From a bacterium (GTDB lineage Bacteria > Patescibacteriota > Minisyncoccia > UBA6257 > JAGOQP01), in NCBI GenBank assembly GCA_021814695.1, contig JAKAHY010000002.1, positions 8,920 through 72,919 of the forward strand: a stretch of 64,000 nucleotides of DNA. Direction: 5' to 3'. The notes below the pieces were generated by a model. The model saw only the letters and a program-made list of their open reading frames with translations, was not told the DNA's origin and did not search any database. Position numbers and translations under genes: made by a program. Positions 2,989 to 58,720 of the stretch are shown here, in pieces. How positions within the stretch are numbered: position 1 is the first letter of the stretch; every line of letters starts with the position of its first letter.

Positions 2989-3426
2989 TTAGGCAATATG
3001 TTTTCTTACTTGGCGCTCGGTTTCCCTTTTTTTAATCGTTTCTCTCTTATCCGTTTTCTTCTTGTGAACGCCCAGTCCTATTTCAAGCTTTATTTTACCG
3101 CGCTTGTTATACAGCTTAAGGGGCACCAGAGTCAAGTTTTTGGATGATGCTTGACCGACAAGAGCGATAATTTCCGACTTTTTTGCCAAAAGTCGGCGCG
3201 ATCGGCGAGGATCGAAATCTTTGGGTGTATTTTTCTCCTGGTAGGGGCCAATTGTTGCGCCAACCAGCCAAAGCTGTCCTCCATAAATTTTAACCAACGA
3301 CCCGACAACACTGGCTTTACCGGAGCGGATAGCTTTAGCCTCATGGCCCAAAAGTTCAATTCCGGCATTTAAAGTGTCGGAAATTTCGTAATCAAAATAG
3401 GCTTTTTTGTTTTGGATTGATTCCAT
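2989..3426 (-). CDS. smpB: SsrA-binding protein SmpB
   Basis: It has NKKAYFDYEI...GIEL.G.E.K and a basic C-terminal tail. Its stop codon directly abuts the tmRNA 5' G. Confidence 0.93.
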   Translation of the reverse strand: MESIQNKKAYFDYEISDTLNAGIELLGHEAKAIRSGKASVVGSLVKIYGGQLWLVGATIGPYQEKNTPKDFDPRRSRRLLAKKSEIIALVGQASSKNLTLVPLKLYNKRGKIKLEIGLGVHKKKTDKRETIKKRETERQVRKHIA

Positions 3427-5643: not shown

Positions 5644-5657
5644 AAATTTAAAATAAA

Positions 5658-5685
5658 GCCCCCTGTAAATACAGGGGGCTTTTTG
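5658..5685 (+). terminator. Rho-independent terminator
   Basis: AGCCCCCTGT-aaat-ACAGGGGGCT followed by TTTT. Confidence 0.8.
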
Positions 5686-5687
5686 AA

Positions 5688-5698
5688 TGTGATATAAT
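5688..5698 (+). promoter_or_regulatory. Extended -10 promoter TGTGATATAAT (copy 2)
   Basis: This is the same 11-mer. The hexamer ends 7 nt before ATG 5706, which implies a leaderless or nearly leaderless mRNA. Confidence 0.6.
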
Positions 5699-5705
5699 GA
5701 AACAA

Positions 5706-8321
5706 ATGAAAAAAACATTACTCATCGGGTTTATTGTGGTCGGCATTGTAAGCTTTTCGGCATTTACCGCGCATGCTCAGTCGGTCAATTATCTTAGTAA
5801 ATTTTTTGCAGATGTCTACGGAGCGTTTTTTGGGAATTCCCAAACGCAAAAAGTTGACGCCCAAACAGTGGGTAATGGAACACTTACTATTCATGCTCAG
5901 ATATGTCAGACGCTCGGGAATTTCGAAAATCCAAGCAGTGCGACCTGTTCTGGTACTCCTCGCGACCCCAATTCTACGGAGTCTCCGTTATTTGTTTATG
6001 ATGTCCAGCGCATAGTTGGGAATGGAGCGAGCGCTCAAGTTACCACAGTTCTTTCAGGTATCGGTCCCGGACAAAGTTATTCGTTACCGGCGAATACTCC
6101 AAACGCTAGTAATAATAACAGAGATGAGTACGTGATTGTGTTTAAGGGGGCACCGACAAATTATTTGTACGTGAGACAAGGAGGAAATTTTGATTTGCCC
6201 TATAAATTTTCAATTTCTTCCGGACAAAATACTCAAGTAAATATTCCTTATGTTATTTATACGGCGATTGAATCAACGGGTCCTGTTGGCACTACTGTTA
6301 CCGCCGATATTGTTGATGGCAATGGAAATTTTGTCAGAGCGCTGACGGCTTCAGAAATTCAATCGGTATCCTTTGACATCCAGCATTCGGTTCCGGCCAC
6401 CGGAGGATATGTCGGATCGCATGCGAACAATTTTGATACTCAAGTTTCTTCGGGAAAATTAAATACTTCATATCAGCTTGCGACCTATGTCCATTCCGGT
6501 TCAATTTTGACAAATATTAAGCCACCATCCGGTTACGTAGTCAGATCAATTAAGCCGGGAACATATTTTGATCCTACTGATGACGTTACTATTCATTTTA
6601 CCAAGTCTCCTGTTTCGTCTCAGGTTCAAAAAGTTGATCAAATGCTCTATGTTCCTAATGGAATTAGCTATGTAAAAAAAATAGCTCAAACATATTCGGA
6701 CAATGAATACAAATATTCGAATCTTGACGTTGATTTATTTGCTTATTATGGAAACAATAATCGTCCTTTTCCCTTGAACTGGACAGTTGCCAAATATTCG
6801 GGAGTTCCTTATTTGTTTATGAATGGAGCAGGAAAGATAGTTATTTATAATATTTCCGATCCTAAAAATCCCAAACAAGTTAGTGAATATGTTCTTTCCG
6901 GTTTGGAAAAATTTAATCAATACAAAGATCGTCAGGGAAATACTTATGGACAGTGTTCTCCTAACCAAGAAGGTACTCATGATTTTATAACTGGAGCCGG
7001 TAAAGTTTTTGCTCTTGATGATTCCCCTTATCTTTTGATTGACATTCAGAGACCGGGTGGGCCAGGCCCTGGAGGGACGGCAGTTTTGTCCTTAGATCCT
7101 TCAACTATGGCCATAACCGCCTATCCTCAATGGACCGAGTGTAACAGTGGTCAAGATACTCCCGGAACCGCTTTCGGAATGTATAAAGGAAGTGACGGAA
7201 ATACTTATTTTATTTCCCAATTCCCGAATAATGCATATGATACGGGTGGAGTAGATACCGGGAATATTGGTATTTACACAATCAATTCTGCTGGTATTGC
7301 CAATAAAGTTGTCGTTCTCAGCGGAATGTCCGGGATTGCTCCGAGTTTGGATTATTCTAATGGAACAATCTCTGTTGTTTCCGTTGGAAGTAAAAAATAT
7401 CTTATTGGTAATGGAAAATCATCTATCGCAAACATAAATTCGACCAGTGCACCAATTTATATTTACGATATTTCCAATCCAAAAAATATAATCAAAATCA
7501 ATCAACAGATCACGGTGTCTACGTCTGGGTCCGGCAGATTAAAAATTGACGAACAAGCCAATCGTATGTATGTTCAGTCATCCATTCCAAATCCTGCCGC
7601 AACATCAACTTCGTACACCATCCCCAAAACATTACCTATTTGGCAGGTATATGACTTGAGTGTTTTGCCCAGTACTCCAAAATTAATTGCTACTTATAAC
7701 AAACCAACCGACCTACTTAATTCAAGTCAAGTGAATGCTGATTTTTCTCAAATTACCAAGAGATTAAATATTGCATCGTCAGGTAATCTTGTGGATATAA
7801 ATAATTCTTCTTTCACTTACGGCGCCTACGGATATTCTTCTTCACTCCAGTTGATAAATGTTTCAAATAATTTAGCTTATATATCACTGTATACAAACGG
7901 AAAAAACCCTTGGGATACGATTGCCAATCAAGCCGGAGTAACGGACGGAAGCGAATACGGGACCAATGCTATTCAATTTATAGTTGACGTGTCCAATGCG
8001 TCCAGTCCCAAAATACTTGGAATGATATTCGGGCATACGGAATATTCTGCTTACGGACTTTCCGCCGGCGGATGGTTTGATGTTCCTCTTTACGGAAGTA
8101 TCTATAACTATAACGGATATATTTACCGAGCCAATTTCCGCATCGCTGATGTATGGAAATTGGGGAATCCTCCGGCCCAAAGTACGGGAGGTGCTGGAAG
8201 TGGGGCTGGTGCGAGCGGCACTGGAACTACCGAAGGAGGATCTGCGCCATCATCAGTTCAATCTCCATTTTCTTTCAGTTCTCTTTTGAAGATATTCCAG
8301 AGAGTGTTTAATAATCAATAA
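5706..8321 (+). CDS. Secreted/surface LVIVD-repeat protein, paralogue 2
   Basis: I prefer the start at MKKTLLIG, by analogy with its paralogues and because ATG 5697 lies inside the -10 box. Repeats include IVIYNISDPKNPKQVS, IYIYDISNPKNIIKI and FIVDVSNASSPKIL. A G/S/A/T linker is followed by the tail SPFSFSSLLKIFQRVFNNQ. Confidence 0.8.
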   Translation: MKKTLLIGFIVVGIVSFSAFTAHAQSVNYLSKFFADVYGAFFGNSQTQKVDAQTVGNGTLTIHAQICQTLGNFENPSSATCSGTPRDPNSTESPLFVYDVQRIVGNGASAQVTTVLSGIGPGQSYSLPANTPNASNNNRDEYVIVFKGAPTNYLYVRQGGNFDLPYKFSISSGQNTQVNIPYVIYTAIESTGPVGTTVTADIVDGNGNFVRALTASEIQSVSFDIQHSVPATGGYVGSHANNFDTQVSSGKLNTSYQLATYVHSGSILTNIKPPSGYVVRSIKPGTYFDPTDDVTIHFTKSPVSSQVQKVDQMLYVPNGISYVKKIAQTYSDNEYKYSNLDVDLFAYYGNNNRPFPLNWTVAKYSGVPYLFMNGAGKIVIYNISDPKNPKQVSEYVLSGLEKFNQYKDRQGNTYGQCSPNQEGTHDFITGAGKVFALDDSPYLLIDIQRPGGPGPGGTAVLSLDPSTMAITAYPQWTECNSGQDTPGTAFGMYKGSDGNTYFISQFPNNAYDTGGVDTGNIGIYTINSAGIANKVVVLSGMSGIAPSLDYSNGTISVVSVGSKKYLIGNGKSSIANINSTSAPIYIYDISNPKNIIKINQQITVSTSGSGRLKIDEQANRMYVQSSIPNPAATSTSYTIPKTLPIWQVYDLSVLPSTPKLIATYNKPTDLLNSSQVNADFSQITKRLNIASSGNLVDINNSSFTYGAYGYSSSLQLINVSNNLAYISLYTNGKNPWDTIANQAGVTDGSEYGTNAIQFIVDVSNASSPKILGMIFGHTEYSAYGLSAGGWFDVPLYGSIYNYNGYIYRANFRIADVWKLGNPPAQSTGGAGSGAGASGTGTTEGGSAPSSVQSPFSFSSLLKIFQRVFNNQ

Positions 8322-8333
8322 TAATTTGAAACA

Positions 8334-8358
8334 ATCCCCCTAGCTGGGGGATTTTTTT
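8334..8358 (+). terminator. Rho-independent terminator
   Basis: ATCCCCC-tagct-GGGGGAT followed by TTTTTT. Confidence 0.8.
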
Positions 8359-8366
8359 GCAAGCAA

Positions 8367-8377
8367 TGTGATATAAT
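8367..8377 (+). promoter_or_regulatory. Extended -10 promoter TGTGATATAAT (copy 3)
   Basis: GCAAGCAATGTGATATAATAAAACAAAT lies 19 nt before ATG 8397. Confidence 0.65.
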
Positions 8378-8396
8378 AAAACAAATAAAAATAACC

Positions 8397-10580
8397 ATGA
8401 AAAAATATTCATTAATTGTGATTATCTTACTTGTTGTTGCAAGTATAGGGATTACCGCTATCTTTTCAAGTCAAGTGTCGATAACCGGATTTCTTTTGAG
8501 CGTTTACTCAACTGTTTCGGGGAGCAATCAAATACAGAGAGTAAATGCACAAACGACAGGCCAAGGAACCATATTATTCCAAGGCCAATTCGGTCATCTT
8601 GAATCGACCGGAAAGGTCACTACCGGAATTTCGGGCTTATCCGGACTTCCGGTGATGAAATTTGTTAAAGACCGTGACCTATCTAGCGATGAAAAAAATC
8701 AGATTAGAGTGGATGTTATTGAACATAACACTCCTTTTGAATTTGTAGTTGCAAAAAATATTTCGCTTGGAGAGGGTGTTAATTTTAATATTCCCGTAGG
8801 TTCGACATATAGATATAGTTTTTATGTTCACCCCGACTCGATTCCCTCCGGATGGGTTTATTATTCCGGTTGTTTAGAGACCGATGGGAATGTTTCGGTA
8901 CTGGCCGGTCAGCAAAGTACTTGCAGCATAGGATTTTATTTAAAGCCCGAAACAATCTCACCCCCTCCGGTCACATCAACATCTACGATCACGTCTACTC
9001 CTTCGGTAGGTGTTTCGGGAACTGTTGTCGGTGAAGATGCCAGCGCAGGATCGTTGCAGTTTGTAAAAAACGTTTTGGATTTAAGCTCACAAAGAAAGGG
9101 CATTATTTATGGAGTTTTGGACGCAAGAACCGTTAATTTGTATGGAAAAAATCTTCTGATAGTTGCTAGAGGTGGAGCTTACTCTGCTACCACTCCAACC
9201 TGGCATATGCTTGTTTATGATATAACCGATCCGCTTGCCCCGGTTCTTTTGAAGGATAATGATATGTCCGGAAGTGGCATAATCTATAGTTCTCCAATGA
9301 CCGGTTTGGCAGTGCTTGATGGCTTTAATTATGTATTTGTCCGTGGAAATGTCGGTTACGGTTCGTTTAAAATTAATCAGGACGGAACTGCGTCTCTTGT
9401 GAAAAGCTATAAATATTCTGAAGTTCAGCAGATACAGACAGATTTAATCAGGGGATTGTTCAACGGTCTGGATGGAAATATATACGGCTACGGAGGGTTT
9501 GTGCAGGATGGAGGACTCGTGCTTTATAACGTTTCCGATCCCGCTAATATTATTCAAGTTGGAACGTATACTAATGGTCTTGAACCAGCGATTGCCATCT
9601 ATGGACAAATTGGATTGAATCGCCAGAGCACTTGGGGCGTTGTTAAAGAAGGAGGCAAACTTTATCTTATTGCTCATGCGGACCAGTTGGTTCTGCGCCT
9701 TCATACGGATTATGATGGAATGATTTATGTTTTTGATGTGTCCAATCCGGCAAGTCCGCAGCTTTCACATATCTATAAAATGTCCAGCTCCTTTAATCAC
9801 CTTCCTTCCGATATGACTTCGTATGAGAAGATGTTTCTTTACGGAGGAGAAGCTAATATATCGGTTGATCCAATATCAAATAGAGTATTTGATTTTTACA
9901 GAACGGTTTTTGATTGGCAGGGACCCAATCAGCTTAAGATAAAAGACATTCCTAAAGGAGCCTTGTTTCGTTATAGAAATGGAATAGCCGTTCTTTCAAT
10001 AGGAATCGATGGTTCTTTGAAATCAAGTTCCAGTAACATATTATTGTGCGAAAGAATAGCCATTCAAGATAATGGGACGTCAGGCGAAGATAAATGTGAT
10101 ACAAAGAGTCCCGAAACGGTTGGGGGATATTATAGTTCCAGTCTTTATGGAAACAGGAATCCTCAAGAAAATTATAACGGAGTATTTCTTCTTGGCGACG
10201 TGAATAATGTCGGACATGTAGGGCTGTTAAAAAGCGATGGTAGTTTTGTTATCATACCCGATCCAACCGGAGAAATGCTTAAATTCAAATCTGTCTTGGC
10301 TGACCCGTCGTATTATTCCGATCCTGGTTTTCGTTCGTCTCCAATCAATGGCATTGTCACTCAAGTTGATAGCAAAACCTTTGCAATATTTCAGATTGAT
10401 AATTATTCCATAAGTGTTACAAAGCTAAATCTATCACAATCCATAACGAGCGTAACACAAAAATCTTCGCCACCTACCACAAATGCCCCTAGTTCATTAA
10501 ATACATCATCTCCTACTCAGACTCCATTTTCCTTCAGCTCGCTCCTGAGAATATTTCAGAGGGTGTTCAATAGTCAGTAA
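8397..10580 (+). CDS. Secreted/surface LVIVD-repeat protein, paralogue 3
   Basis: It is collinear with paralogue 1 along its whole length. Repeats include LVLYNVSDPANIIQVG and MIYVFDVSNPASPQLS. The tail is TPFSFSSLLRIFQRVFNSQ. Confidence 0.8.
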   Translation: MKKYSLIVIILLVVASIGITAIFSSQVSITGFLLSVYSTVSGSNQIQRVNAQTTGQGTILFQGQFGHLESTGKVTTGISGLSGLPVMKFVKDRDLSSDEKNQIRVDVIEHNTPFEFVVAKNISLGEGVNFNIPVGSTYRYSFYVHPDSIPSGWVYYSGCLETDGNVSVLAGQQSTCSIGFYLKPETISPPPVTSTSTITSTPSVGVSGTVVGEDASAGSLQFVKNVLDLSSQRKGIIYGVLDARTVNLYGKNLLIVARGGAYSATTPTWHMLVYDITDPLAPVLLKDNDMSGSGIIYSSPMTGLAVLDGFNYVFVRGNVGYGSFKINQDGTASLVKSYKYSEVQQIQTDLIRGLFNGLDGNIYGYGGFVQDGGLVLYNVSDPANIIQVGTYTNGLEPAIAIYGQIGLNRQSTWGVVKEGGKLYLIAHADQLVLRLHTDYDGMIYVFDVSNPASPQLSHIYKMSSSFNHLPSDMTSYEKMFLYGGEANISVDPISNRVFDFYRTVFDWQGPNQLKIKDIPKGALFRYRNGIAVLSIGIDGSLKSSSSNILLCERIAIQDNGTSGEDKCDTKSPETVGGYYSSSLYGNRNPQENYNGVFLLGDVNNVGHVGLLKSDGSFVIIPDPTGEMLKFKSVLADPSYYSDPGFRSSPINGIVTQVDSKTFAIFQIDNYSISVTKLNLSQSITSVTQKSSPPTTNAPSSLNTSSPTQTPFSFSSLLRIFQRVFNSQ

Positions 10581-10597: not shown

Positions 10598-10630
10598 GCT
10601 CCCATTTTAACGGATGGGGGCTGTTTTTTT
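10598..10630 (+). terminator. Rho-independent terminator
   Basis: GCTCCCAT-tttaacgg-ATGGGGGC followed by TGTTTTTTT. Confidence 0.75.
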
Positions 10631-10668: not shown

Positions 10669-13600
10669 ATGTTGAGAAATCTTAAACACTTTAATCCGCC
10701 GGAAATTGAGGAAAAAGTTTTACAGCTTTGGAAAGAAAAAGGGATATTTCAAAAAACACTCAAAGTTCCAAAAGGAAAAAAGGCCCTGCCTACCGGCAGG
10801 CAGGCAAAAATATTTCGGTTTTGGGAAGGTCCACCGACAGCCAATGGCCGTCCCGGAATTCATCATATTTTAGCCCGTTCTTTTAAGGACGTTGTTTTGC
10901 GTTTTAAAACGATGCAAGGGTATACGGTTCCCCGTAAGGGTGGTTGGGATACTCATGGATTGCCCGTTGAAATCCAGGTTGAAAAGCAGCTCGGATTTAA
11001 AACAAAAAAAGATATAGAAGATTACGGAATAGCCGCATTCAACCAAAAATGTAAAGAATCAGTCTGGCTTTATCAAAGCGAATGGGAAAAATTGACCGAA
11101 CGCATGGGTTTTTGGCTGGATTTGAAAAATCCTTATGTCACATACCACAAAGATTACATAGAGTCGCTTTGGTGGATCATCAAACAAGTTTGGGATAAAG
11201 GGTTGATGTATCAAGGGCATAAAGTGGTTCCTTGGTGTACTCGCTGCGGGACAGCTCTTTCTTCCCATGAATTGGCTCAAGGATACAAAGAGCTTACCGA
11301 TACTTCTGTTTACATAAAATTTAAACTTCTTCCAAAACAAAAAATCGGTTCTTTTATAACCGATGATAAAACATACATCTTATCCTGGACGACGACTCCT
11401 TGGACTTTGCCCGGAAACGTCGCTTTGGCAGTCGGAAATAAAATCAAATATATTGCGGCAAAAATCGGAGGAGAGACTTTTATTATTGCGGAAGATCTTG
11501 CCGGATCGGTTTTGGGATCGGAAAATCATAAAGTTATCAATGAATTTAAAGGCGAGTCGATTTCAGGGAAAGAATACGCCCCACTTTTTGAAATTGCGGC
11601 ATTAAAAAAACCGGAATCGTACAAGGTATATCCGGCTAAATTTGTGACAACCACCGATGGAACGGGGGTGGTGCACACGGCCGTAATGTACGGAGAGGAC
11701 GATTATAACCTGGGAAAAGAAGTCGGACTTCCTCAGCATCATACGGTTACCGAACAAGGAACTTTCACAAAAGACGTTAAAGGATTTGAAGGGATGTACG
11801 TCAAAGCCAAGGAGACCGAGGATAAGATACTAGATTATCTAAAGAAAAATAATTTCCTTTTGCAAACACAGGCTTATACCCATGAATATCCTCATTGCTG
11901 GAGATGTGGAACTCCGCTTTTGTATTACGCGCGCAGTTCATGGTTTGTAGCGATGTCGAAACTGAAAGATAATCTGATCGAAAGCAACCAGGGAACCAAC
12001 TGGGTTCCGGCACATATCAAAGAGGGCAGATATGGAGAATGGCTCTCCGAAATTAAAGATTGGAATTTTTCACGGGAAAGATATTGGGGCACCCCACTGC
12101 CGATCTGGACGTGCGAGAATTGTGGAAACCATAAAGCTGTTGGAAGTTATAAAGAGCTTTCGGAACATCTTCCTTCTAGTACCAACAGATATATTCTTGT
12201 CCGTCATGGAGAAGCGGGGCAAAATGTTTCCAATATAATCAACTGCGACCCCAAAGATAAGGATAAATACCCGTTAACAACCAATGGAATAATCCAGGCG
12301 AAGAGAACTTCCCTGAGCCTCAAGAAAAAAATAAAAAAAATAGACGCGATTATCTCGTCGGATTTTATTCGGACAAAGGAAACCGCAAAAATTATCGGCG
12401 ATGAATTTGGAATAAAGAAAATAATCACCGATCCGCTTTTGAGGGAAGTTAACATGGGAGATTTTAACGGGGACAATGTTTCTCGTTACCACGAGTACTT
12501 TTCTTCGCTTGAAGAAAAATTTATGAAACGGACCCCTAACGGAGAAAACCTCAGAGATCTGGCCGCAAGAAGCTACGATTTTATACAAAAATGTGAAAAA
12601 AAATACAGCGGGAAAACTATTGTTGTGGTAGGGCATGAATATCCGCTGTGGATGGCGGAGACCGTTCTTTCTGGATGGAGTCAGGAAGAATCGGTGTCGG
12701 AAAAAGAAAAAAGAGGTCCCGATTTTATAGAAGTCGGAGGATTTGATTCCGTTACTTTTGTTCCGGCATCAAGAGATGAACAGGGAATCTGTGATTATCA
12801 TAAGCCATATGTGGATTCAATCAGCATCCCTTGCGAAAAATGCGGAAAAAAGATGAATCGAGTTAAAGAAGTTGCCGACGTATGGTTTGATTCGGGGTCA
12901 ATGCCATTTGCCCAAGATCATTATCCTTTTGAGAAGGGTGATAAAGTCGGGAAAGCGCCCCAATCGTTTCCGGCCGATTATATCTGTGAGGCAGTCGATC
13001 AGACCCGCGGGTGGTTTTACACTCTTATGGCCGTCTCTACATTATTGGATTATGAAACGCCGTATAAAAACGTCGTTTGCCTAGGGCATATAAACGACAA
13101 GCATGGACAGAAAATGTCCAAATCAAAAGGGAACATTGTTGATCCATGGATGATAATAGATAAATATGGCATTGATGCCGTTAGGTGGTATTTTTACACC
13201 GTTAATGCTCCGGGGGAGCCGAAGAATTTTGACGAGAATGAGGTTGCTAAAGTACTGAGAAAATTCAGCATGACTCTTTATAATTCGTTCGCGTTTTTGG
13301 CGCTTTATGGAAAACAGAAGGTAAGTATCCAAAAGAAACCTTCATCGCCGAATATTTTGGACAGGTGGATTTTGGCAAGGCTAAATCAAACAACTGTCGG
13401 AGTTTCGGACAAAATGGACGCATATGATTTCTTGGCTACCGGACAAATAATAGAATCGTTTATTGACGATCTTTCCAGATGGTACATTCGCCGATCGAGA
13501 AAGAGATTCCAAAAAATTTCGGATAAATCGGATTGGGGTACGGCGACCGGTGTTTTGGCGTATGTTTTGGCCGAATTTTCAAAAGTGATCGCTCCCTTTA

Positions 13601-14223
13601 CTCCATTTTTCGCCGAAGCTCTTTACAGATCCATAGCCGAATTTTGTTCGTTTAGCGCAAAAGAATCCGTTCATCTCGAATCATGGCCGGAGGGCAGGGT
13701 TTTTAATGACGATGCGGTTATGTCGGAAGCCATGAAACAGATAAGAGACTACGCCAGTGCTGTTTTGGCAAAAAGAGCCGAAGTTGGAATCAAAGTGCGG
13801 CAGCCTTTGAGCTTGTTGAAAATAAGAAGCATTAAGTCTAAAGAAAAAGACTCTAAACAATTATTAGAAGTGTTAAGGGATGAAGTTAACGTCAAAGAAG
13901 TTGTGATTGATCCAAAAATAGAAAATGAATTTGAGTTGGATATCAACATCACTCCGGAACTTAAAGCCGAAGGAATTTTGAGGGAAATAGCCCGGACAAT
14001 TCAGGAATTGAGACAAAGTTCGGCATGTGTTCCCAAGGATAAAATAGAAGTTCGCATTTCCGGACCTGCCGACATTGAAGCGGTGGTCAAAAACGGACAA
14101 GCCACGCTTTGCCAATACGTTAACGCCAAAAATATTCTTTTCGGTAAGAGCGGTAAATTTGATTCCGAAATTGAAACCAAAATTGATTCGTCAAAAATTT
14201 GGATAGGTTTAAGAAAAATATAA
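10669..14223 (+). CDS. ileS: Isoleucine--tRNA ligase (type-2-like) with an inserted histidine-phosphatase-family domain
   Basis: It has EGPPTANGRPGIHH, KMSKSKGN, the editing-domain region, and WTCENCG ... CEKCGKKMNRV..DVWFDSGSMP. Between the two Cys pairs (about nt 12175-12790) lie RYILVRHGEAGQN, SSDFIRTKETA, REVNMGDFNG and VVGHEYPL, which is the RHG...H signature of histidine phosphatases. Confidence 0.93.
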   Translation: MLRNLKHFNPPEIEEKVLQLWKEKGIFQKTLKVPKGKKALPTGRQAKIFRFWEGPPTANGRPGIHHILARSFKDVVLRFKTMQGYTVPRKGGWDTHGLPVEIQVEKQLGFKTKKDIEDYGIAAFNQKCKESVWLYQSEWEKLTERMGFWLDLKNPYVTYHKDYIESLWWIIKQVWDKGLMYQGHKVVPWCTRCGTALSSHELAQGYKELTDTSVYIKFKLLPKQKIGSFITDDKTYILSWTTTPWTLPGNVALAVGNKIKYIAAKIGGETFIIAEDLAGSVLGSENHKVINEFKGESISGKEYAPLFEIAALKKPESYKVYPAKFVTTTDGTGVVHTAVMYGEDDYNLGKEVGLPQHHTVTEQGTFTKDVKGFEGMYVKAKETEDKILDYLKKNNFLLQTQAYTHEYPHCWRCGTPLLYYARSSWFVAMSKLKDNLIESNQGTNWVPAHIKEGRYGEWLSEIKDWNFSRERYWGTPLPIWTCENCGNHKAVGSYKELSEHLPSSTNRYILVRHGEAGQNVSNIINCDPKDKDKYPLTTNGIIQAKRTSLSLKKKIKKIDAIISSDFIRTKETAKIIGDEFGIKKIITDPLLREVNMGDFNGDNVSRYHEYFSSLEEKFMKRTPNGENLRDLAARSYDFIQKCEKKYSGKTIVVVGHEYPLWMAETVLSGWSQEESVSEKEKRGPDFIEVGGFDSVTFVPASRDEQGICDYHKPYVDSISIPCEKCGKKMNRVKEVADVWFDSGSMPFAQDHYPFEKGDKVGKAPQSFPADYICEAVDQTRGWFYTLMAVSTLLDYETPYKNVVCLGHINDKHGQKMSKSKGNIVDPWMIIDKYGIDAVRWYFYTVNAPGEPKNFDENEVAKVLRKFSMTLYNSFAFLALYGKQKVSIQKKPSSPNILDRWILARLNQTTVGVSDKMDAYDFLATGQIIESFIDDLSRWYIRRSRKRFQKISDKSDWGTATGVLAYVLAEFSKVIAPFTPFFAEALYRSIAEFCSFSAKESVHLESWPEGRVFNDDAVMSEAMKQIRDYASAVLAKRAEVGIKVRQPLSLLKIRSIKSKEKDSKQLLEVLRDEVNVKEVVIDPKIENEFELDINITPELKAEGILREIARTIQELRQSSACVPKDKIEVRISGPADIEAVVKNGQATLCQYVNAKNILFGKSGKFDSEIETKIDSSKIWIGLRKI

Positions 14224-14224
14224 A

Positions 14225-15139
14225 ATGACTCCATTTTTTATATCGGTTCCCGTATTCCTGGTGATAATAGCCGGGTGGTTGTTTAAGAAGTACAAAATAG
14301 TAGACGAAGTCTGGATTCATGTTTTAAACCGATTTGTCTATCACGTTTCTCTTCCGGCGCTTATCATTGCCAGTTTTTGGAGTATCAATTTTAGCGACAA
14401 AATTTCATTAATGACCGTTGTATGGAGCGCGTCCTTTATGATTGCTTTTATGATATTAGTCGCAATCGTTTTGTCTTTTTTAAGTCTTCCTCATAAAACA
14501 AAAGCGGCCGCATTTCTAATTATTTGCACAGGAAATACTATTTACATGGGCTTTCCGATAATATCGGATGCATTCGGTGGTGGAGCGATGCCGATGGGGT
14601 CGTTAATAGCCGTTCTATATCTCATTTTACCGATATTGGCGTCGATTTTCATGATCAGAATTTGGGCCAACAGCCATCTTTCGTTATCATCCCAATTTAT
14701 TGAATTTATAAAAAATCCACTTATGATTTCGGCTGTTGCCGGGGTGATGGCAAGTTTTATTCCAAGACAGGCAGTTGGCGTGGAGTTGCTTTATAAAGCA
14801 TTGATTTTGGTTGGAGCGACGGCCTCACCGGTGGCGCTTTTTGCACTGGGGAGCTTTTTGTATAAAAGATTTCTAAAAAGTAATTTTAAACTGGTTTTTT
14901 GGTCGTCTTTTTCAAAAGTTGCCGTATTTCCGGTTGCGGTATTTATTGCAGGAAAACTAATGGGAATTGCCAAGCCGGACTTTGGGCTGATGGTCTTGCT
15001 TGCGGTCATGCCCTCTGCAGTGACTACCTTTATTATCGCCGAGAAATTTTCATTAGATGAAATAGCCGTAGGGAACGCTATATTGCTTTCAACAATCCTT
15101 TCGTTTTTTGTGATTCCTCTGGCGGCTTTAATTATTTAA
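14225..15139 (+). CDS. AEC (auxin-efflux-carrier) family permease
   Basis: This 304-aa polytopic membrane protein has an N-terminus and two-lobed layout typical of AEC/YfdV-type transporters. Confidence 0.65.
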   Translation: MTPFFISVPVFLVIIAGWLFKKYKIVDEVWIHVLNRFVYHVSLPALIIASFWSINFSDKISLMTVVWSASFMIAFMILVAIVLSFLSLPHKTKAAAFLIICTGNTIYMGFPIISDAFGGGAMPMGSLIAVLYLILPILASIFMIRIWANSHLSLSSQFIEFIKNPLMISAVAGVMASFIPRQAVGVELLYKALILVGATASPVALFALGSFLYKRFLKSNFKLVFWSSFSKVAVFPVAVFIAGKLMGIAKPDFGLMVLLAVMPSAVTTFIIAEKFSLDEIAVGNAILLSTILSFFVIPLAALII

Positions 15140-15142
15140 CAG

Positions 15143-16384
15143 ATGTTTTTGAGATTTCCAAAAGATTTTTTTTGGGGAACAGCCACTTCCGCTCATCAGG
15201 TGGAGGGAAATAACCGCAACGACTGGACCGAATGGGAAAAAGATAATGCTTCTTGCCTTGCCGATGAGTCTCATAGAAAGTGGCAATCTTGGCAGCAAAA
15301 AAAATTTCCGGAAATGTTTAATCCGGACAATTATATTTCGGGAAAAGCCTGTGACCATTACAATCTTTTTGAGAAAGATTTCGATATTGCAAAAAAATTG
15401 GGCCATAATGCCCATAGATTTTCCATTGAGTGGTCTCGGATAGAGCCGGAAGAGGGGAGGTTTAACGAAAAAGAGATTGAGCATTACCGCAAGGTTATTA
15501 CTGCTCTAAAAAAAAGAGAAATGGAGCCGTTAGTAACTTTGTGGCAATTTACCCTGCCGATGTGGATCGCAAATAATGGCGGAGTCAGCCACAGAAAATT
15601 TACGTCGTATTTTGCTCGATATGCGTCAAAAATTGCCAGCGCCTTTCCGGAGGTTAAGTTATGGATTACTTTAAATGAACCAGACGTCTTTGCCGGCCGC
15701 GCCTATCTTAAAGGGTTTTGGCCGCCCGAAAAACATAACGCCTTCTCATATCTGAGGGCGCTTAACAATCTTGTACAAGCTCACAAAGCGGCGCATAAGG
15801 AAATAAAAAAGGTGAATTTGTCGGCGAGGGTTGGGATTGCTAAACACAACGTCTATTTCGAGATGGCAAAAGATACGGCACTGAACCGAATTTTAAAATT
15901 TGGGGCGGATTTATGGTGGAACCGGTACTTCCTGTGGCGGATAAAAAATTATCAGGATTTTATCGGGCTTAACTATTACAATCGTAACCTGATTAATAAC
16001 GGATATTACAAAAATAAAAATATAAAATTAACCGACTTCGGTTGGGAATATTGGCCCTCATCTTTGTACGGCGCTCTAATGGATTTAAAGATGTATAATC
16101 TTCCCGTGTATATAACCGAGAATGGAATTGCCGATTCCGACGACAACCAACGGTCCGAGTTTTTATCAATCACTCTTGAGTCAGCGGCAAAAGCCATTCG
16201 GGACGGAATTGACGTCCGCGGATATTTTTATTGGTCTTTATTGGATAATTTTGAATGGGACAAAGGTTTTTGGCCGAGGTTCGGGTTGGTTGAGGTTGAT
16301 TATAAAACTCAAAAGAGAACTATTCGCAAAAGCGCCGCGTACTATAGAGACATAATTTTAAAAAATGGAGTAGAATTGGGATAA
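15143..16384 (+). CDS. Glycoside hydrolase family 1 (beta-glucosidase-like)
   Basis: It has FPKDFFWGTATSAHQVEG, the TLNEP acid/base motif and the YITENG nucleophile motif. Confidence 0.88.
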   Translation: MFLRFPKDFFWGTATSAHQVEGNNRNDWTEWEKDNASCLADESHRKWQSWQQKKFPEMFNPDNYISGKACDHYNLFEKDFDIAKKLGHNAHRFSIEWSRIEPEEGRFNEKEIEHYRKVITALKKREMEPLVTLWQFTLPMWIANNGGVSHRKFTSYFARYASKIASAFPEVKLWITLNEPDVFAGRAYLKGFWPPEKHNAFSYLRALNNLVQAHKAAHKEIKKVNLSARVGIAKHNVYFEMAKDTALNRILKFGADLWWNRYFLWRIKNYQDFIGLNYYNRNLINNGYYKNKNIKLTDFGWEYWPSSLYGALMDLKMYNLPVYITENGIADSDDNQRSEFLSITLESAAKAIRDGIDVRGYFYWSLLDNFEWDKGFWPRFGLVEVDYKTQKRTIRKSAAYYRDIILKNGVELG

Positions 16385-16385
16385 T

Positions 16386-17696
16386 ATGATAATTCGTAAT
16401 TACAAATCTCTGGCAACAACGAAACTTCGCAGAGACGGGCTAAAAATTATCGAGAGCGCTTATGAGGCGATTGATATCGAAAAACTTATTAAAAGACGTT
16501 TTTTGCTCAATGGACGAACTCTCGAGGTAAGGGACTTGGCCCAAAAAAACAAAATATTATTGGATAAATATAAGCGGGTTTTTGTAATTGGTTTTGGAAA
16601 GGGGTCATACGCGGCGGTTTCCAAAATGTCGGATATTTTGGGAAAGAAACTTTACGGAGCGATATCGCTTGATATTAATTCTTCGTACAAACCAAAAAGA
16701 CCAAATAAAAAAGTTACAGCTTTTTGGGGGACTCATCCTACGCCATCTAAGGAAAATGTAGAGGCGACAACGACAATAACTTCAATTGCCAGAGATGCGA
16801 ATAAAGACGATTTGATAATTTATTTTATAGGAGGGGGAGGCTCATCTCTTTTGTGCGGTTCTTTGGGAGAGTTGGATTATTCAGGATGGCTTTTTAAAAA
16901 ACTAACCAAGAAGGGAGCGACGATAGAGGAAATCAATACGGTCAGAAAACACATCTCGGAGGTTAAGGGCGGTAATCTGGCCAAGCTTACATATCCGGCA
17001 GACTCCTTTTCACTCATAGTTTCCGATGTTTGCGGCAATTCTTTGGGAACGATCGCTTCGGGCCCCACAATCTATGATAAATCAAAAGTTGAAGATGCTC
17101 TGATGGTGTTGAAAAAATATAAAATACCTGTCGGAAATATCATTTTCACAAAAACTCCCAAAGAAAAGAAATATTTTTCTAAATGTAAGTATTTTCTTCT
17201 GGCTTGTAATCAAGACGCTGTTTTAGCGATGGTAAATACGGCGAGAAAAATCGGATACGATGCTTCCATAGGCTCTCTTCTTGTTAATGGTGAGGCAAGG
17301 AAAGCTATTTTCCCTTTCATTAAAAAAACTAAAGTTGGTCAGGCAACAATTCTTGCCGGTGAAACAACGGTAGTGATAAGAGGAAGGGGAAAGGGCGGCA
17401 GAAATCAGGAGTTGGTACTTTCGGTTATCGCGGCGGCAAGTGATAAAAAAATAGATATGACAGGAACGTTTCTGGCCAGCTTTAATTCGGATGGATTTGA
17501 TAATACTCCGGTTGCCGGAGCGATTGCCGACGATGTTTCGTTTAAAAATTGTAAAAAAAGGAAACTTAATCCTGCCAAATATTTGAATAATAACGACTCG
17601 TTTACTTTCTTCCAAAAAACCGGAGATTTCATCCGGACAGAGAGGAGAGCATTTAATGTTGCCGATTTGATGCTGATTTTGATATCAGATAAATAA
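16386..17696 (+). CDS. Glycerate 2-kinase / hydroxypyruvate-reductase-like protein (DUF4147 + MOFRL type)
   Basis: It has GFGKGSYAA, GGGGSSLL, VRKHISEVKGG and GETTV..RG.GKGGRNQE motifs. Confidence 0.7.
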   Translation: MIIRNYKSLATTKLRRDGLKIIESAYEAIDIEKLIKRRFLLNGRTLEVRDLAQKNKILLDKYKRVFVIGFGKGSYAAVSKMSDILGKKLYGAISLDINSSYKPKRPNKKVTAFWGTHPTPSKENVEATTTITSIARDANKDDLIIYFIGGGGSSLLCGSLGELDYSGWLFKKLTKKGATIEEINTVRKHISEVKGGNLAKLTYPADSFSLIVSDVCGNSLGTIASGPTIYDKSKVEDALMVLKKYKIPVGNIIFTKTPKEKKYFSKCKYFLLACNQDAVLAMVNTARKIGYDASIGSLLVNGEARKAIFPFIKKTKVGQATILAGETTVVIRGRGKGGRNQELVLSVIAAASDKKIDMTGTFLASFNSDGFDNTPVAGAIADDVSFKNCKKRKLNPAKYLNNNDSFTFFQKTGDFIRTERRAFNVADLMLILISDK

Positions 17697-17708
17697 AAAA
17701 ATCGCTTA

Positions 17709-17838
17709 GTTCCGTGGACAACTGTGTGGATGTGAGACCTTTGCCAACAGCAAAGGAGTTCAGAATCTTTCAGAGGTGCACCTCAGCCGGAACCGAGATA
17801 TCCTATGCGTAGAAAAATTCCAAGATTGTCCACGAAAC
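17709..17838. ncRNA. Candidate structured RNA in a 284-bp ORF-free spacer (family and strand unknown)
   Basis: GTTCCGTGGACAA (17709-17721) pairs with TTGTCCACGAAAC (17826-17838) at 12 of 13 positions. This stem encloses the hairpins CCTTTGC-caaca-GCAAAGG and GAGG-tgca-CCTC and a GGAT/ATCC helix. Confidence 0.3.
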
Positions 17839-17980
17839 CAAACGATCTTCTATAAGCTAAATATTATCATAAATAATGGAATTTGTCAAGCATGGGAACA
17901 TTCCATTATCTTTAAAATATTTACTTTTATAATGAGCTCTTTTTTGATACAGTTAGGAATAATAGTGGCATAAGTAAATC

Positions 17981-18979: not shown

Positions 18980-19041
18980 TTCCCCGTTCGAGGCCTCTTG
19001 TGATACAATATAAGCGTTATTAATAACGTTTTTTATTTATT

Positions 19042-21477: not shown

Positions 21478-22746
21478 ATGATTCTTTCGGAAACAAAAAT
21501 CGTAGCCATTAAAGATTCAAGAGGCAGTCAAACGCTTGAAGCGCACATCACAGCCCATGAAGGCGATAGTAAGGAAATTTCCGTTGTGGCAAGCGTTCCT
21601 GCCGGGAAAAGTACCGGAATTCACGAAGTAAAGTCGTTGAGTCCGGCTCTTGCATTTGAACAGTTTGAAAAAATAAAACGCAATATCATCGGAGTTAACT
21701 TTCATGACCAGCAGGAATTTGATGCTTTGTTGATCGCATTAGACGGAAGTTTGGATAAGCATGTTTTGGGAGGTAATTTAATCCTTGTTTTGTCGGAAGG
21801 ATTTGCGCGGGCTTTTGCTGCAACCCGAGATCTAGGGCTTAACCAATACCTTCATCAGCTGCTTGGGTCAAAACATAAAATTCCGGACCGGTTTCCCAGA
21901 CCTTTATTTAATATAATAAACGGAGGGGCTCATGTGACGATTCCCTCGGACTGGGATAAAAAATTCGGAGTTTCAAAATCTCTGGATATCCAGGAATTTC
22001 AGGTGGTTCCAGCGACAGATGATTTTGCTTTAGGATTAAGTGTGGGAAAAGAATTTTATTCAAAACTTGGATATGAGCTTGGAAAAATATATGGAGCAGA
22101 AAATGTAATCTTAGGGGATGAGGCGGGATATGTCTGTCCGTTTAAAACAAATGAAGAAGCGCTCGAAATTATCCAAGAGCTGATTAATCGGTATTTATAT
22201 CCACTCAAAATAGGGCTGGATGCGGCAGCATCCCAATTTCATAATGATGCCGACGATTCTTATATGATAGAAGGAGCCGAAAGGACCCCAGAAGAGTTGA
22301 CGATGCTTTATTACGACCTTGCTCATGCTTACGAATTGATATCGCTTGAGGATCCTTTTAACGAAGAGGCATTTGATGATTTTGCCGGTCTTCAAGAAAA
22401 AATTCCCAAGACTATTCTTATTACCGACGATCTTACGACAACCAATCCCGAAAGATTATCCAAGGCGATTTCTAAAAAATCGGCCAATGCCATACTTATT
22501 AAACCCAATCAAATCGGAACAATAACAGAAACGATTGATGTTATTTCTATGGCTTATGAAAACGGATGGAAGACAATAGTCAGTCACCGGAGCGGTGAAA
22601 CCAAAGATGATTTTATCGCCGACTTAGCTGTTGGTGTCGGAGCTTGGGGATTAAAATCCGGAGCGCCGGCGACAGAATACAGAATGGCAAAATATTCCAG
22701 GGCTCTCGATCTATGGCAAAAAATTAACCCTTCCGGCCCCTTTTAA
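21478..22746 (+). CDS. eno: Enolase (divergent)
   Basis: It has I.AIKDSRGSQTLEA, SVPAGKSTGIHE, IKPNQIGTITET and SHRSGETKD. Its ATG follows the ppsA TAA directly. Confidence 0.85.
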   Translation: MILSETKIVAIKDSRGSQTLEAHITAHEGDSKEISVVASVPAGKSTGIHEVKSLSPALAFEQFEKIKRNIIGVNFHDQQEFDALLIALDGSLDKHVLGGNLILVLSEGFARAFAATRDLGLNQYLHQLLGSKHKIPDRFPRPLFNIINGGAHVTIPSDWDKKFGVSKSLDIQEFQVVPATDDFALGLSVGKEFYSKLGYELGKIYGAENVILGDEAGYVCPFKTNEEALEIIQELINRYLYPLKIGLDAAASQFHNDADDSYMIEGAERTPEELTMLYYDLAHAYELISLEDPFNEEAFDDFAGLQEKIPKTILITDDLTTTNPERLSKAISKKSANAILIKPNQIGTITETIDVISMAYENGWKTIVSHRSGETKDDFIADLAVGVGAWGLKSGAPATEYRMAKYSRALDLWQKINPSGPF

Positions 22747-22788: not shown

Positions 22789-24330
22789 TTATTGCAAAAG
22801 CTGTTTTATCAGGCTCTCTCCGGTCATGTCTTGAGGTTTAGGAAGTTCCATTAGTTCAAGAATTGTCGGTCCTATATCGGCCAACATTCCGGACATAAAA
22901 CGCTCCCTTTCTTTTACATCAAATGGATTTTGGGGTTTTTTGTATTTGCTTCCCACTAAGTAAATCGGCACCGGACTCGTGTCATGTTTAGTCTCCGGCT
23001 CTCCGGTAAGAGGATTAAAAAGCCGTTCTATGTTGCCATGGTCGGACGTTATAATAGCCGTTGAATTGTGCTGAAGTATCGTTTGGACGATTTTTCCTAT
23101 TTGCTCATCAATTACTTCGATAGCTTTCATAGAGGCGTCAAAATTTCCGGTATGTGCAACCATATCGGCATTGGCATAGTTAACCAATATAAAATCGAAA
23201 GTTTCTTCTTCAATTGCCTGTAGCAGGCGAGTTGTTATTTCGGGAGCCATCATTACCGGATCCTGGTCCTGCTGAGGGACGATTCTCGATGGAATCAAAA
23301 TTCTATATTCATTTTGAAACGCCTTATCGTTAAGACCATTGAAAAAGAAAGTAACATGAGCATATTTTTGAGTTTCGGCCATTCTGAGCTGGCTTTTCTG
23401 GTTGTCAGCGATAACTTTTCCTACGGGATTATTCACTCGTTGGGGTGGAAAAGCTACGGGGATGGTAAAATCTTCCCTGAGCTGAGTCATGGAAGCGACC
23501 AAAAGATTATCGAACTTTTTTATAGGAAATTGGGTAAATGACGGATTAATAAACCCTTCGGCCAGTTGTCTGGTTCGGTCTTCCCTAAAATTAAAAAAGA
23601 AAATCGAATCTCCGTCTTTGATGGCATTGTCGGCCGAACCAATAAGCGCCGGTAATATAAACTCATCATCCAATTTTTTATCGTAGGCTTGTTGAAGATG
23701 GTTTTTTATCTCCGTAATAGGCATTATTGTTCCGTTACCGACAAGCATTTCATAAGCCCGCTGGGTCAGGTCCCACCTGCTGTCTCTGTCCATTGCATAA
23801 AATCTTCCCGCAATACTTCCGATTTTATCTTGGGGAAGTTTTTCTATAAGTGAAAAGGCCGATTGGGGAGCGCTGTCACGACCGTCGGTTATGACATGAA
23901 TTCTGTAGTCAATTTTGCGCCTATTTGCCAGATCTATTAAAGCTTGGAGGTGTTCCATTGAAGAATGAACATTGGCTTCTCCAACGAGGCCTATTAAATT
24001 TATTTTGGAGTTGTTTTTTTGGGCATGGTCAAAAGCGCCGTTAATCGTCGGATTAGAAAAAAAAGAACCGTCCCGAATCGCCAAGCTTATGCGGGGATAG
24101 TGTTGGTAAATTATTTTCCCCGCCCCCATTGTCAAATGGCCCACTTCGCTGTTACCCTCCTCTCCCCAAGGGAGGCCTACGGCAATGCCGGATGCCTGCA
24201 AGGCTCCGGAAGGAAAGTTGTTTTTTACATATTCTATATTTTTAGGCTTGGCAACATGAATCGGGTTCGAGTCGCCCTCCACTCCAATTCCCCAGCCATC
24301 AAGAACTATAAGAACTACGGTATTTCGCAT
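22789..24330 (-). CDS. gpmI: 2,3-bisphosphoglycerate-independent phosphoglycerate mutase
   Basis: It has LIVLDGWG, SEVGHLTMGAG, DGRD and ITSDHGN motifs. The protein is 513 aa. Confidence 0.93.
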   Translation of the reverse strand: MRNTVVLIVLDGWGIGVEGDSNPIHVAKPKNIEYVKNNFPSGALQASGIAVGLPWGEEGNSEVGHLTMGAGKIIYQHYPRISLAIRDGSFFSNPTINGAFDHAQKNNSKINLIGLVGEANVHSSMEHLQALIDLANRRKIDYRIHVITDGRDSAPQSAFSLIEKLPQDKIGSIAGRFYAMDRDSRWDLTQRAYEMLVGNGTIMPITEIKNHLQQAYDKKLDDEFILPALIGSADNAIKDGDSIFFFNFREDRTRQLAEGFINPSFTQFPIKKFDNLLVASMTQLREDFTIPVAFPPQRVNNPVGKVIADNQKSQLRMAETQKYAHVTFFFNGLNDKAFQNEYRILIPSRIVPQQDQDPVMMAPEITTRLLQAIEEETFDFILVNYANADMVAHTGNFDASMKAIEVIDEQIGKIVQTILQHNSTAIITSDHGNIERLFNPLTGEPETKHDTSPVPIYLVGSKYKKPQNPFDVKERERFMSGMLADIGPTILELMELPKPQDMTGESLIKQLLQ

Positions 24331-58142: not shown

Positions 58143-58155
58143 TTTTAAATTTTTC

Positions 58156-58719: not shown

Positions 58720-58720
58720 T

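Follow-up and report, generated by a model that had tools for sequence, protein, structure and literature searches.

Catalytic domains inserted into aminoacyl-tRNA synthetases have so far meant proofreading. The connective peptide 1 (CP1) editing domain of the isoleucyl-, valyl- and leucyl-tRNA synthetases (IleRS, ValRS and LeuRS) and the insertion domain (INS) of bacterial prolyl-tRNA synthetase (ProRS) are hydrolases that sit as connective peptides inside the Rossmann fold and leave aminoacylation intact; they cleave aminoacyl esters and are near-universal, and the textbook IleRS reaction has no step at which phosphate is removed. Here we describe an IleRS that departs from this pattern. It is encoded by ileS in a stretch of 64,000 nucleotides, hereafter the window, from a Patescibacterial genome (GenBank assembly GCA_021814695.1, contig JAKAHY010000002.1, positions 8,920 to 72,919), and it carries within its CP3 region an inserted domain of the histidine phosphatase superfamily. 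The solved enzyme closest to it is the IleRS of Thermus thermophilus (1ILE/1JZQ), which has a zinc-binding CP3, shares the architecture and the motifs outside the insert and has corresponding Cys pairs; it differs in having about 10 residues where the window IleRS has an enzyme domain of about 210. CP3 is the subdomain between CP2 and the second Rossmann half, and a comparison of solved IleRS structures finds a zinc motif there in the Thermus enzyme alone (PMC7191050).

The insert was delimited by alignment. Residues 6-499 of the window protein correspond to residues 6-478 of 1ILE, its closest solved structure (E=4.5e-242), and residues 709-1038 correspond to residues 489-818, the region of DYHKPYVD and the second Cys pair aligning from 1ILE residue 489 on. 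In insert-less relatives (from loci L089, L093 and L001), '...GSxxEL...' and 'DLHRPYID' are joined by no more than a short linker. An earlier reading of the same DNA, made without database searches (the sequence-only reading), had claimed that some 200 extra residues lie between the two Cys pairs at 12175-12790 (aa 503-707); both comparisons bear this out, and the alignment with type-2 IleRS that it had proposed now gives slightly wider limits (Table 1). On this alignment the insert lies at the tip of the zinc knuckle of CP3, the connective peptide that leads from the WGTPLP strand to the second Rossmann half. Every IleRS model that matches the open reading frame (ORF) is interrupted at the insert: the NCBIfam model TIGR00392 (ileS) scores 859.4 bits against a cut-off of 621.4 with its match split in two, and the Pfam domains of the synthetase are tRNA-synt_1, Anticodon_1 and, at the C-terminus as in type 2, DUF5915.

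The insert itself is predicted from its sequence to be a complete and catalytically competent branch-1 histidine phosphatase, that is, a phosphomonoesterase that would act via phospho-His513. The profile check suggested by the sequence-only reading gave a match to His_Phos_1 that spans profile positions 2-164 of 194. The AlphaFold2 (AF2) model of the insert alone has a predicted local distance difference test score (pLDDT) of 96.2 and a predicted template modelling score (pTM) of 0.92, and a Foldseek comparison of this model with the PDB returned 299 matches at E<=0.001; all 50 listed are members of the family with TM-scores of at most 0.75, the relatives being GpgP, PspA, TIGAR, PhoE and CobC (TM 0.69-0.75, 20-26% identity). 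Conservation was assessed by aligning the window IleRS with 118 full-length homologues that are 52-83% identical to it overall, and counts here and in Table 1 are out of these 119 sequences. Median identity to the query is 44% for the insert (range 32-68%) and 59% for the rest of IleRS. At this divergence all five catalytic residues are invariant, as are L536, G540, S564, E626 and R634, which argues for a retained activity, as had been supposed earlier from the apparently intact Arg/His set; the motifs and numbering then given (R512-H513, SSDFIRTKETA, LREVNMGDFNG and H656 in VVVGHEYPL) proved exact. N519, E626 and R634 are invariant or nearly so in hundreds of sequences at 30-45% identity, the R and H of the RHG motif are 100% conserved across all five architecture classes, and the position of E593 is held in other clades by E or, conservatively, by D.

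The synthetase around the insert is likewise intact, which had already been read for PGIHH and KMSKS and extends to the editing motifs. The invariance of TTTPWT and GTGVVH implies that editing is retained, D709 is kept in 118 of the 119 sequences, H711, P713, D716, C722 and C725 are invariant or nearly so, and K815, M816, S817, K818 and S819 are invariant in the homologues. Since the phosphatase residues and those of the synthetase, editing and zinc sites are all invariant, both activities look maintained by selection. Judged by these motifs, the fused gene would be the cell's working IleRS, and their integrity, together with the conserved synteny of the fused gene, leads us to expect that the fused protein aminoacylates tRNAIle. 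The spacing from C485 to D709 is 213-226 aa across the 119 homologues, the junction residues N506, Y508, R702 and G706 are each at least 95% conserved, and both linkers have a pLDDT of at least 91 in the AF2 model of the full-length IleRS (pLDDT 89.3, pTM 0.82), in which the phosphatase domain appears to be rigidly mounted. An intein was considered and rejected: there is no Hint/intein Pfam match, the junctions read ...ELSE/HLPSS... and ...EQGIC/DYHKPY..., and the phosphatase fold fills the whole insert. An assembly chimera or a frameshift was also rejected, as four data sources and more than 200 genomes at species level show the same architecture.

When one genome of each GTDB species was scanned with a single peptide pattern, at least 207 loci matched, all of them in Patescibacteria, and in nearly all of the 80 loci retained the match sits in an ORF of 1130-1275 aa. 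Out of 1.84 billion cluster representatives, 577 clusters (50% identity) were matched by the profile of the domain with E<=1e-30, and PF00300 is present in all 120 best database homologues of the window IleRS. The named ones among these 120 are Patescibacteria (Paceibacterota, Parcubacteria, Wolfe-, Jorgensen- and Liptonbacteria), taxon names here and below being those given by the depositors. Their usual database name is 'class I tRNA ligase family protein' only, which the NCBI pipeline gives because of the inserts, and one automatic JGI name reads 'isoleucyl-tRNA synthetase/phosphohistidine phosphatase SixA/...GNAT'. No description of an IleRS, or of another synthetase, with a histidine phosphatase was found in the full-text literature, and no NCBIfam model covers a phosphatase-bearing IleRS. 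Thus the sequence-only reading, which had called the architecture undescribed and had named an insertion already common and annotated as what would speak against it, was right about the literature and the curated models, whereas the insertion is common (at least the 207 species genomes above) and its domain is tagged automatically by Pfam; as far as we can tell, it is visible in databases yet unstudied. The insertion is far beyond chance, and we regard it as a real, ancient, selected and undescribed case of domain accretion in an aminoacyl-tRNA synthetase. Such inserts also matter for the marker-gene alignments of candidate phyla radiation (CPR) bacteria.

In other lineages a related phosphatase is encoded by a gene of its own. 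Searches with the insert alone found stand-alone proteins of about 190 aa, the best from Candidatus Moranbacteria at 36% identity, and a profile search found a large stand-alone family of the sequence form 'MKLNNKYYILRHG...GELRKLN', some short matches of which may be gene fragments; the insert belongs to a Patescibacteria-specific phosphatase subfamily. The gene order in loci L089-L092 and L093-L096 is argS, phosphatase, an insert-less ileS (984 or 938 aa), a small ORF and recO, and the phosphatase gene ends right at the ileS start or runs into it (by 10 nt in L093-L096), which implies co-translation. The phosphatase gene lies directly upstream of ileS in L101 and L102, is separated from it by one gene in L001 and L002, and adjoins recO in L098; these adjacencies represent five independent contig families and not a systematic survey. 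Of 80 loci with a fused ileS, 43 have argS on its upstream side, in many cases next to it, and 26 have recO on its downstream side. Read from gene order, the phosphatase gene at the argS/ileS junction of some lineages is the one found inside ileS in others, the window lineage among the latter, which makes a Rosetta-stone pair with conserved context. The distant stand-alone homologues P0127, P0128 and P0133 have unrelated neighbourhoods, and therefore the link to ileS is limited to the close subfamily; the contigs that carry P0254 are too short to inform on this point. Within 2-5 kb of P0133 are argS, an RNase R-like gene and a TilS-like gene of PF01171 (L007, 8100-12289); we take the TilS-like gene to belong to the tRNAIle lysidine synthase family, and the nearness of P0133 to this tRNAIle-related gene is probably a coincidence.

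The insertion in CP3 is not the only one. A double-domain IleRS (P0164) used as query led to further architectures in genomes named as Gracilibacteria, Peregrinibacteria and Peribacteria, and mapping by regular expressions against sequence landmarks, which left 54 domains unclassified, placed the others at four sites (A to D, Table 1, with counts for the sample mapped). Combinations of the domains include A+A, A+D, C+D and B+C+D, with two to four copies per protein and four in one truncated protein. The catalytic pentad (RHREH) is intact in 209 of 213 domains at site A, 9 of 10 at B, 14 of 18 at C (with three more showing E-to-D) and 69 of 69 at D, and nearly all copies in multi-copy proteins are catalytically intact. 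In a rough neighbour-joining tree, which is distance-based and indicative only, the B, C and D domains each form a clade of their own and the A domains are mixed with the stand-alone genes; this fits several insertions that are old and took place separately, the domain at site A descending from the gene next door. Only family-wide catalytic and structural motifs are common to all five architecture classes. In one protein without a histidine phosphatase (P0368, JGI, 1504 aa) site C, between WFESG and DQTRGWF, is occupied at aa 566-990 by two tandem HAD phosphatase domains with the motifs FFDFDGV and FFDNDGV (DxDGV), a hint that phosphatase chemistry itself is wanted at IleRS.

In the Gracilibacteria-, Peregrinibacteria- and Peribacteria-named genomes IleRS reaches 1859 aa and is an insertion hot spot for enzyme domains in general (examples are P0308, P0309, P0319-P0321, P0348, P0369, P0385, P0389 and P0391). 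The inserts other than His_Phos include GNAT acetyltransferase, a P-loop kinase like AAA_33, PNK or Zeta toxin, an alpha/beta hydrolase, an IS200-like Y1 transposase domain and DUF559/REase-like endonuclease, the last once in the editing-domain region (P0385 aa 294-399). Among the products of the genes around P0164 (L097) are adenylosuccinate synthase, DAHP synthase, one subunit of pyruvate:ferredoxin oxidoreductase and a protein with an SLH domain. This biosynthetic capacity is above that of typical CPR bacteria and may place the lineage with C and D sites in a less reduced group.

Table 1. Features of the ileS locus and of the rest of the window (positions in the window), and the insertion sites of histidine phosphatase domains in related IleRS proteins
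Feature	Positions	Strand	Description
Terminator-like hairpin and T-run	10598..10630	+	closes the upstream gene; consensus match only
ileS	10669..14223	+	1184-aa type-2 (eukaryote-like) IleRS bearing the insert
HIGH-type signature PGIHH (aa 62-66)	10852..10866	+	sequence reading; P62 and H66 invariant, 64 homologues
CP1 editing motif TTTPWT (aa 241-246)	11389..11406	+	T241, T242, T243, W245 and T246 invariant
Editing motif GTGVVH (aa 331-336)	11659..11676	+	G331, T332, G333, V335 and H336 invariant
First Cys pair, CP3 zinc knuckle, C482-E-N-C485	12112..12123	+	C482 119/119, C485 117/119
Insert (aa 500-708)	12166..12792	+	whole branch-1 histidine phosphatase domain with short conserved junctions; alignment, AF2
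Pfam His_Phos_1 PF00300 match (aa 509-673)	12193..12687	+	98.7 bits (gathering score 21.7), E=4.3e-28
RHG motif: R512, nucleophile H513, G514	12202..12210	+	R512 and H513 119/119
R568, second phosphate-binding Arg (SSDFIRTKETA)	12370..12372	+	119/119
E593, general acid/base (LREVNMGDFNG)	12445..12447	+	119/119
H656, second catalytic His (VVVGHEYPL)	12634..12636	+	119/119
DYHKPYVD (aa 709-716) and second Cys pair C722-E-K-C725	12793..12843	+	CP3 resumes after the insert
Second Rossmann half: WFDSG (739-743), DQTRGWF (777-783), KMSKS (815-819)	12883..13125	+	sequence reading
Anticodon-binding domain (aa 898-1049)	13360..13815	+	Pfam Anticodon_1, E=5.9e-28
Enolase	21478..22746	+	adjoins iPGM
Cofactor-independent phosphoglycerate mutase (iPGM), canonical	22789..24330	-	Pfam Metalloenzyme 2e-67, iPGM_N 3e-60
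CCA-adding enzyme with HD phosphohydrolase domain	32150..33643	+	Pfam PolyA_pol, PolyA_pol_RNAbd, tRNA_NucTran2_2, HD
Site A			CP3, first Cys pair to HxPYxD; 172 proteins with a single A insert
Site B			HxPYxD to WFDSG; sole site in 4 proteins, 10 domains overall
Site C			WFDSG to DQTRGWF; sole site in 6 proteins, 18 domains overall
Site D			about 70 aa past KMSKS, ahead of the anticodon-binding domain; one insert, at D, in 47 proteins

One phosphatase subfamily is thus tied to one synthetase by several independent routes, namely a translationally coupled neighbour gene, four insertion sites, multiple copies and one non-homologous replacement. Catalytic residues that stay intact over hundreds of species and an association that recurs in this way are what comparative genomics would take as the signature of a real functional partnership, and phosphatase and IleRS probably work together in a manner not described before. 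IleRS is the only host seen; argS, which is equally adjacent, is not a host in the matches examined. The insertions are always internal to the catalytic half and no end fusions were seen, matches of about 650-700 aa with an N-terminal phosphatase having the size expected of 5'-truncated fused genes. Because the host is IleRS only, the insertion internal and no cap residues shared, the substrate would be one that IleRS presents, either tRNAIle or its own catalytic loop. In its general part this proposal, namely that IleRS has in the phosphatase a dedicated partner whose target is the phosphate of something that IleRS holds, is in our opinion very probably correct.

As the specific substrate we favour a phosphomonoester borne by tRNAIle, such as a 3'(2')-terminal phosphate or pyrophosphate at A76, although this choice by itself is doubtful. 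The scheme would be as follows: a terminal phosphate or pyrophosphate on A76 of tRNAIle would block charging, the embedded phosphatase would remove the block, and the unblocked tRNAIle would then be aminoacylated by the same enzyme. Two analogies support it, as the acceptor end of the tRNA is the normal target of catalytic inserts in synthetases, and the arrays with kinase and phosphatase recall RNA end-healing enzymes such as T4 polynucleotide kinase-phosphatase (Pnkp). Taken as a whole, we give this explanation a probability of roughly 0.35. A wider form of it, which we put forward tentatively, is that Patescibacteria have an as yet unrecognised phosphorylation-based block or control of tRNAIle charging, against which IleRS has repeatedly recruited its own eraser phosphatase, at four insertion sites, as an operon partner and once as a HAD substitute. 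The phosphate could then, as tentatively, sit on the 3' end of tRNAIle, elsewhere on tRNAIle or on the catalytic loop of IleRS, and with the same reserve we suppose that kinase and acetyltransferase modules were added to the system in some lineages as well. If true, it would make IleRS the first synthetase in which an unblocking activity, as distinct from a proofreading one, is built in. The identity of the substrate would either uncover a further level at which tRNA or the synthetase is controlled or repaired, or show how episymbionts with minimal genomes pack housekeeping enzymes into essential proteins.

A number of observations weigh against tRNAIle as the substrate. Neither NCBIfam, Foldseek against the PDB, PADLOC, charge nor the conservation of residues across classes points to a substrate. 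The insert reaches no cut-off of the NCBIfam phosphatase equivalogs: SixA was rejected (TIGR00249, 34.5 bits against 74.5, over the N-terminal ~75 residues only) and so was the alpha-ribazole phosphatase CobC (TIGR03162, 63.9 bits against 162.9), and no PADLOC-DB defence model matches the insert, the stand-alone gene or two multi-domain IleRS proteins at E<=0.01. The domain is not markedly basic, with a pI of about 8.8 at site A, like the IleRS body, and of about 6 at sites B-D; having no excess of positive charge over the IleRS body, it lacks an electrostatic sign of RNA binding. To our knowledge no enzyme of the histidine phosphatase fold acts on RNA ends, and we know of no tRNA 3'-end blockage specific to tRNAIle, so that such blockage alone would leave the exclusivity for IleRS unexplained. 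Moreover, the CCA-adding enzyme of the same genome already bears an HD phosphohydrolase domain and may already offer healing of tRNA 3' ends, two to four intact copies at separate sites suit a precise cis-acting activity poorly, and gene adjacency could account for the origin of the insertion, but not for its retention. The sequence-only reading had named Ap4A-type by-products among its candidates, which remain guesses; these by-products would not be normal substrates for a phosphomonoesterase.

Several other explanations have to be weighed against the tRNAIle-directed one. The nearest structures (PhoE, GpgP, PspA, CobC and the riboflavin-pathway HFP) are broad-specificity small-molecule phosphatases, and it could be that the domain is coupled to aminoacylation by hydrolysing pyrophosphate (PPi), AMP or another nucleoside monophosphate, thereby pulling or tuning the reaction or feeding nucleoside salvage. 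Sites A-C lie in the segment leading to the ribose-binding DQTRGWF and site D follows KMSKS, the PPi-handling loop, multiple intact copies suit a dosage effect on a diffusible substrate, and the HAD_2-type family, a member of which replaces the histidine phosphatase in P0368, includes pyrophosphatases and nucleotidases. However, PPi and AMP are made by all twenty synthetases, yet IleRS is the sole host, we know of no branch-1 member that is a pyrophosphatase, and AMP or PPi hydrolysis would waste energy where a PpsA/PPDK-type enzyme is encoded nearby. A defined small substrate would usually also need cap residues, which are not conserved across clades, and we regard a substrate of this kind as unlikely. 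The lack of conserved substrate-cap residues does suit a protein phosphatase that acts on IleRS itself or on a bound partner and erases an inhibitory phospho-Ser, phospho-Thr or phospho-His in or near the KMSKS loop, the putative writer being a toxin kinase of the HipA kind or, in those lineages whose IleRS has a kinase insert, that kinase. The histidine phosphatase fold includes the protein phosphatases SixA, PGAM5 and Sts-1, the KMSKS-type loop is where HipA/HipT kinases inactivate class I synthetases, IleRS alone shows the association, the internal insertions flank the KMSKS loop in sequence, and some arrays hold both P-loop kinase and GNAT domains, possible writers of modifications. The unmatched SixA model, the absence of any kinase gene near ileS in the window and of any PADLOC defence-system match, and the fact that we know of no phosphorylation of a bacterial IleRS make both this activity and the proposed writer decidedly unlikely. 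It could also be that the phosphatase is instead an unrelated housekeeping enzyme captured from next door into insertion-tolerant loops during streamlining, which kept its own job and for which IleRS is a mere carrier securing expression. Patescibacterial IleRS does tolerate GNAT, DUF559, P-loop kinase, alpha/beta hydrolase and transposase-like inserts, a nearby source gene makes local capture likelier, several sites and copy numbers work, so that exact geometry may not matter, and the insert evolves faster than the IleRS body. Adjacency alone, however, predicts mostly end-to-end fusions with argS or ileS, of which none was seen, and argS as a host too. The non-homologous HAD phosphatase in the same enzyme, the stand-alone gene overlapping or abutting the ileS start, with the co-translation that this implies, and the conserved and rigid junction are likewise not expected of a passenger; both the capture of an unrelated enzyme and the role of IleRS as its carrier seem improbable to us, though worth keeping in mind.

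It was also considered whether the insert is the organism's cofactor-dependent phosphoglycerate mutase (dPGM), filling the gap in phosphoglycerate mutase (PGM) of some Parcubacteria, since its top NCBIfam phosphatase-family match is the archaeal-type dPGM NF038349 (E=2e-26) and ileS is closely followed by genes for enolase, glycerate kinase and a PpsA-like enzyme. Its scores are far below the cut-offs (93 bits against 225 for NF038349 and 23.4 against 81.7 for TIGR01258, pgm_1), and LREVNMGDFNG at the catalytic Glu is of the PhoE/CobC phosphatase type and not the dPGM motif ERHYG, as in E. coli GpmA. PGM was indeed not detected in several shallow Parcubacteria clades (Jaffe et al., 2020; PMC7304191). 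However, Gracilibacteria-named lineages keep all of the 69 site-D copies intact, and a curated Gracilibacteria genome lacks glycolysis (PMC7304191). For the present genome a missing phosphoglycerate mutase is ruled out by the canonical iPGM beside enolase in the window; the embedded phosphatase is therefore not needed as the cell's PGM, and we find a mutase role scarcely credible. A non-catalytic structural or tRNA-binding module, a relic fold serving as scaffold or dimerisation device, could make use of the fact that histidine phosphatases are often dimers, as paired copies could form intramolecular pseudo-dimers. Scaffolds lose catalytic residues, whereas the catalytic five and N519, E626 and R634 are held in every copy class, which makes such a relic very improbable.

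In the window, a 10-pair stem at 10598-10621 followed by TGTTTTTTTA precedes ileS, which opens a new unit 39 nt past this terminator-like hairpin; no T-box or other leader RNA was found upstream of ileS by Rfam at gathering thresholds. Downstream on the ileS strand (14225-22746) follow genes for a Mem_trans permease, a GH1 beta-glucosidase, a glycerate kinase (DUF4147 and MOFRL), RuvB, a PpsA/PPDK-type enzyme and enolase, the first three spaced by 1-3 nt, and the iPGM gene is convergent beyond enolase. Glycerate kinase follows ileS in 7 related loci too (8 tblastn matches including the window), those listed being L009, L010, L012-L014 and L044; the ancestral argS-ileS-recO context has been replaced in the window lineage. 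Upstream of ileS (3499-10580) lie three consecutive ORFs of 714, 874 and 727 aa with one weak LVIVD repeat and otherwise almost no Pfam signal. The 727-aa product, the one of the three inspected as a sequence, has a hydrophobic N-terminal segment, relatives of the 874-aa product with 28-32% identity are encoded near ileS in L010, L012 and L014, and the three may be cell-surface proteins typical of episymbionts.

Other features of the window were noted in passing. A tmRNA at 2670-3414 on the minus strand (Rfam 114.6 bits; tag peptide EAYPRKALSYP by ARAGORN) adjoins a smpB-like gene, the product of which is 51% identical to the SmpB of L093, and SmpB is encoded near ileS in 39 of 80 related loci. 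The 20-bp GC-rich palindrome CCTGCCTRCCGGCAGGCAGG occurs twice, at 10785-10804 and 36984-37003, with 0 occurrences expected by chance. The former copy is in-frame in ileS at about codons 39-46, a lineage-variable stretch with a pLDDT of 61-67, and the latter lies between the ORF at 35773-36822 and a tRNA-Ala gene; the two share the palindrome core only, which could be a small REP-like element tolerated in a coding region. The cumulative GC skew climbs monotonically over the 64 kb and the great majority of ORFs of at least 150 aa are on the plus strand, which suggests one replichore with a strong gene-strand bias. A cluster resembling type IV pilus and type II secretion systems (T2SS), as is common in Patescibacteria, is found at 57048-63674 (PilM, PilN, two T2SSE ATPases and T2SSF), with a partial T2SSE at 97-705; it may be relevant to host attachment or DNA uptake.

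Compared with known systems, the insert shares fold, size, the RHG...R...E...H set and the motifs 'LRE..G..G' and 'GE....R' with small branch-1 histidine phosphatases such as PhoE of B. stearothermophilus (1H2E), GpgP of M. tuberculosis (Rv2419c, 4PZ9), PspA of Hydrogenobacter (4IJ5), CobC (6E4B) and TIGAR (3DCY). It differs from them in its low identity, in not being free-standing and in the E after the second His (GHEYP), where the usual residue is G. A histidine phosphatase joined to a nucleic-acid enzyme is found in the bifunctional RNase H/CobC-type proteins (PRK07238; M. tuberculosis Rv2228c type), and PRK07238 is a steady mid-rank match of the insert and of the stand-alone gene (60-80 bits against a cut-off of 326); those proteins, the function of which is unsettled, are end-to-end fusions, whereas the insertion in IleRS is internal. 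The pairing of His_Phos with an AAA_33/Zeta-like kinase in P0369 and P0385 is reminiscent of PFK-2/FBPase-2 (P-loop kinase and His_Phos), and T4 polynucleotide kinase-phosphatase combines a P-loop kinase with a HAD domain, the type of phosphatase found in P0368. These likenesses were drawn at the superfamily level, and the window IleRS, in contrast to such pairs, has a phosphatase only.

A curated precedent for an extra enzyme domain in IleRS exists in NF040702 ('ileS_w_GNAT'). With a cut-off of 1999 bits, this model gives 302.6 bits for the window IleRS, which has no acetyltransferase Pfam match, and 283 bits for P0308, and IleRS proteins with both GNAT and His_Phos occur in Gracilibacteria- and Peregrinibacteria-named genomes. 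With respect to CP1 and INS, the window insert differs by its predicted phosphomonoesterase chemistry, by its position in CP3 or other loops and by its restriction to Patescibacteria. Domain accretion by synthetases is itself known; what is of interest here is the recurrent and IleRS-exclusive recruitment of a catalytically conserved phosphatase subfamily.

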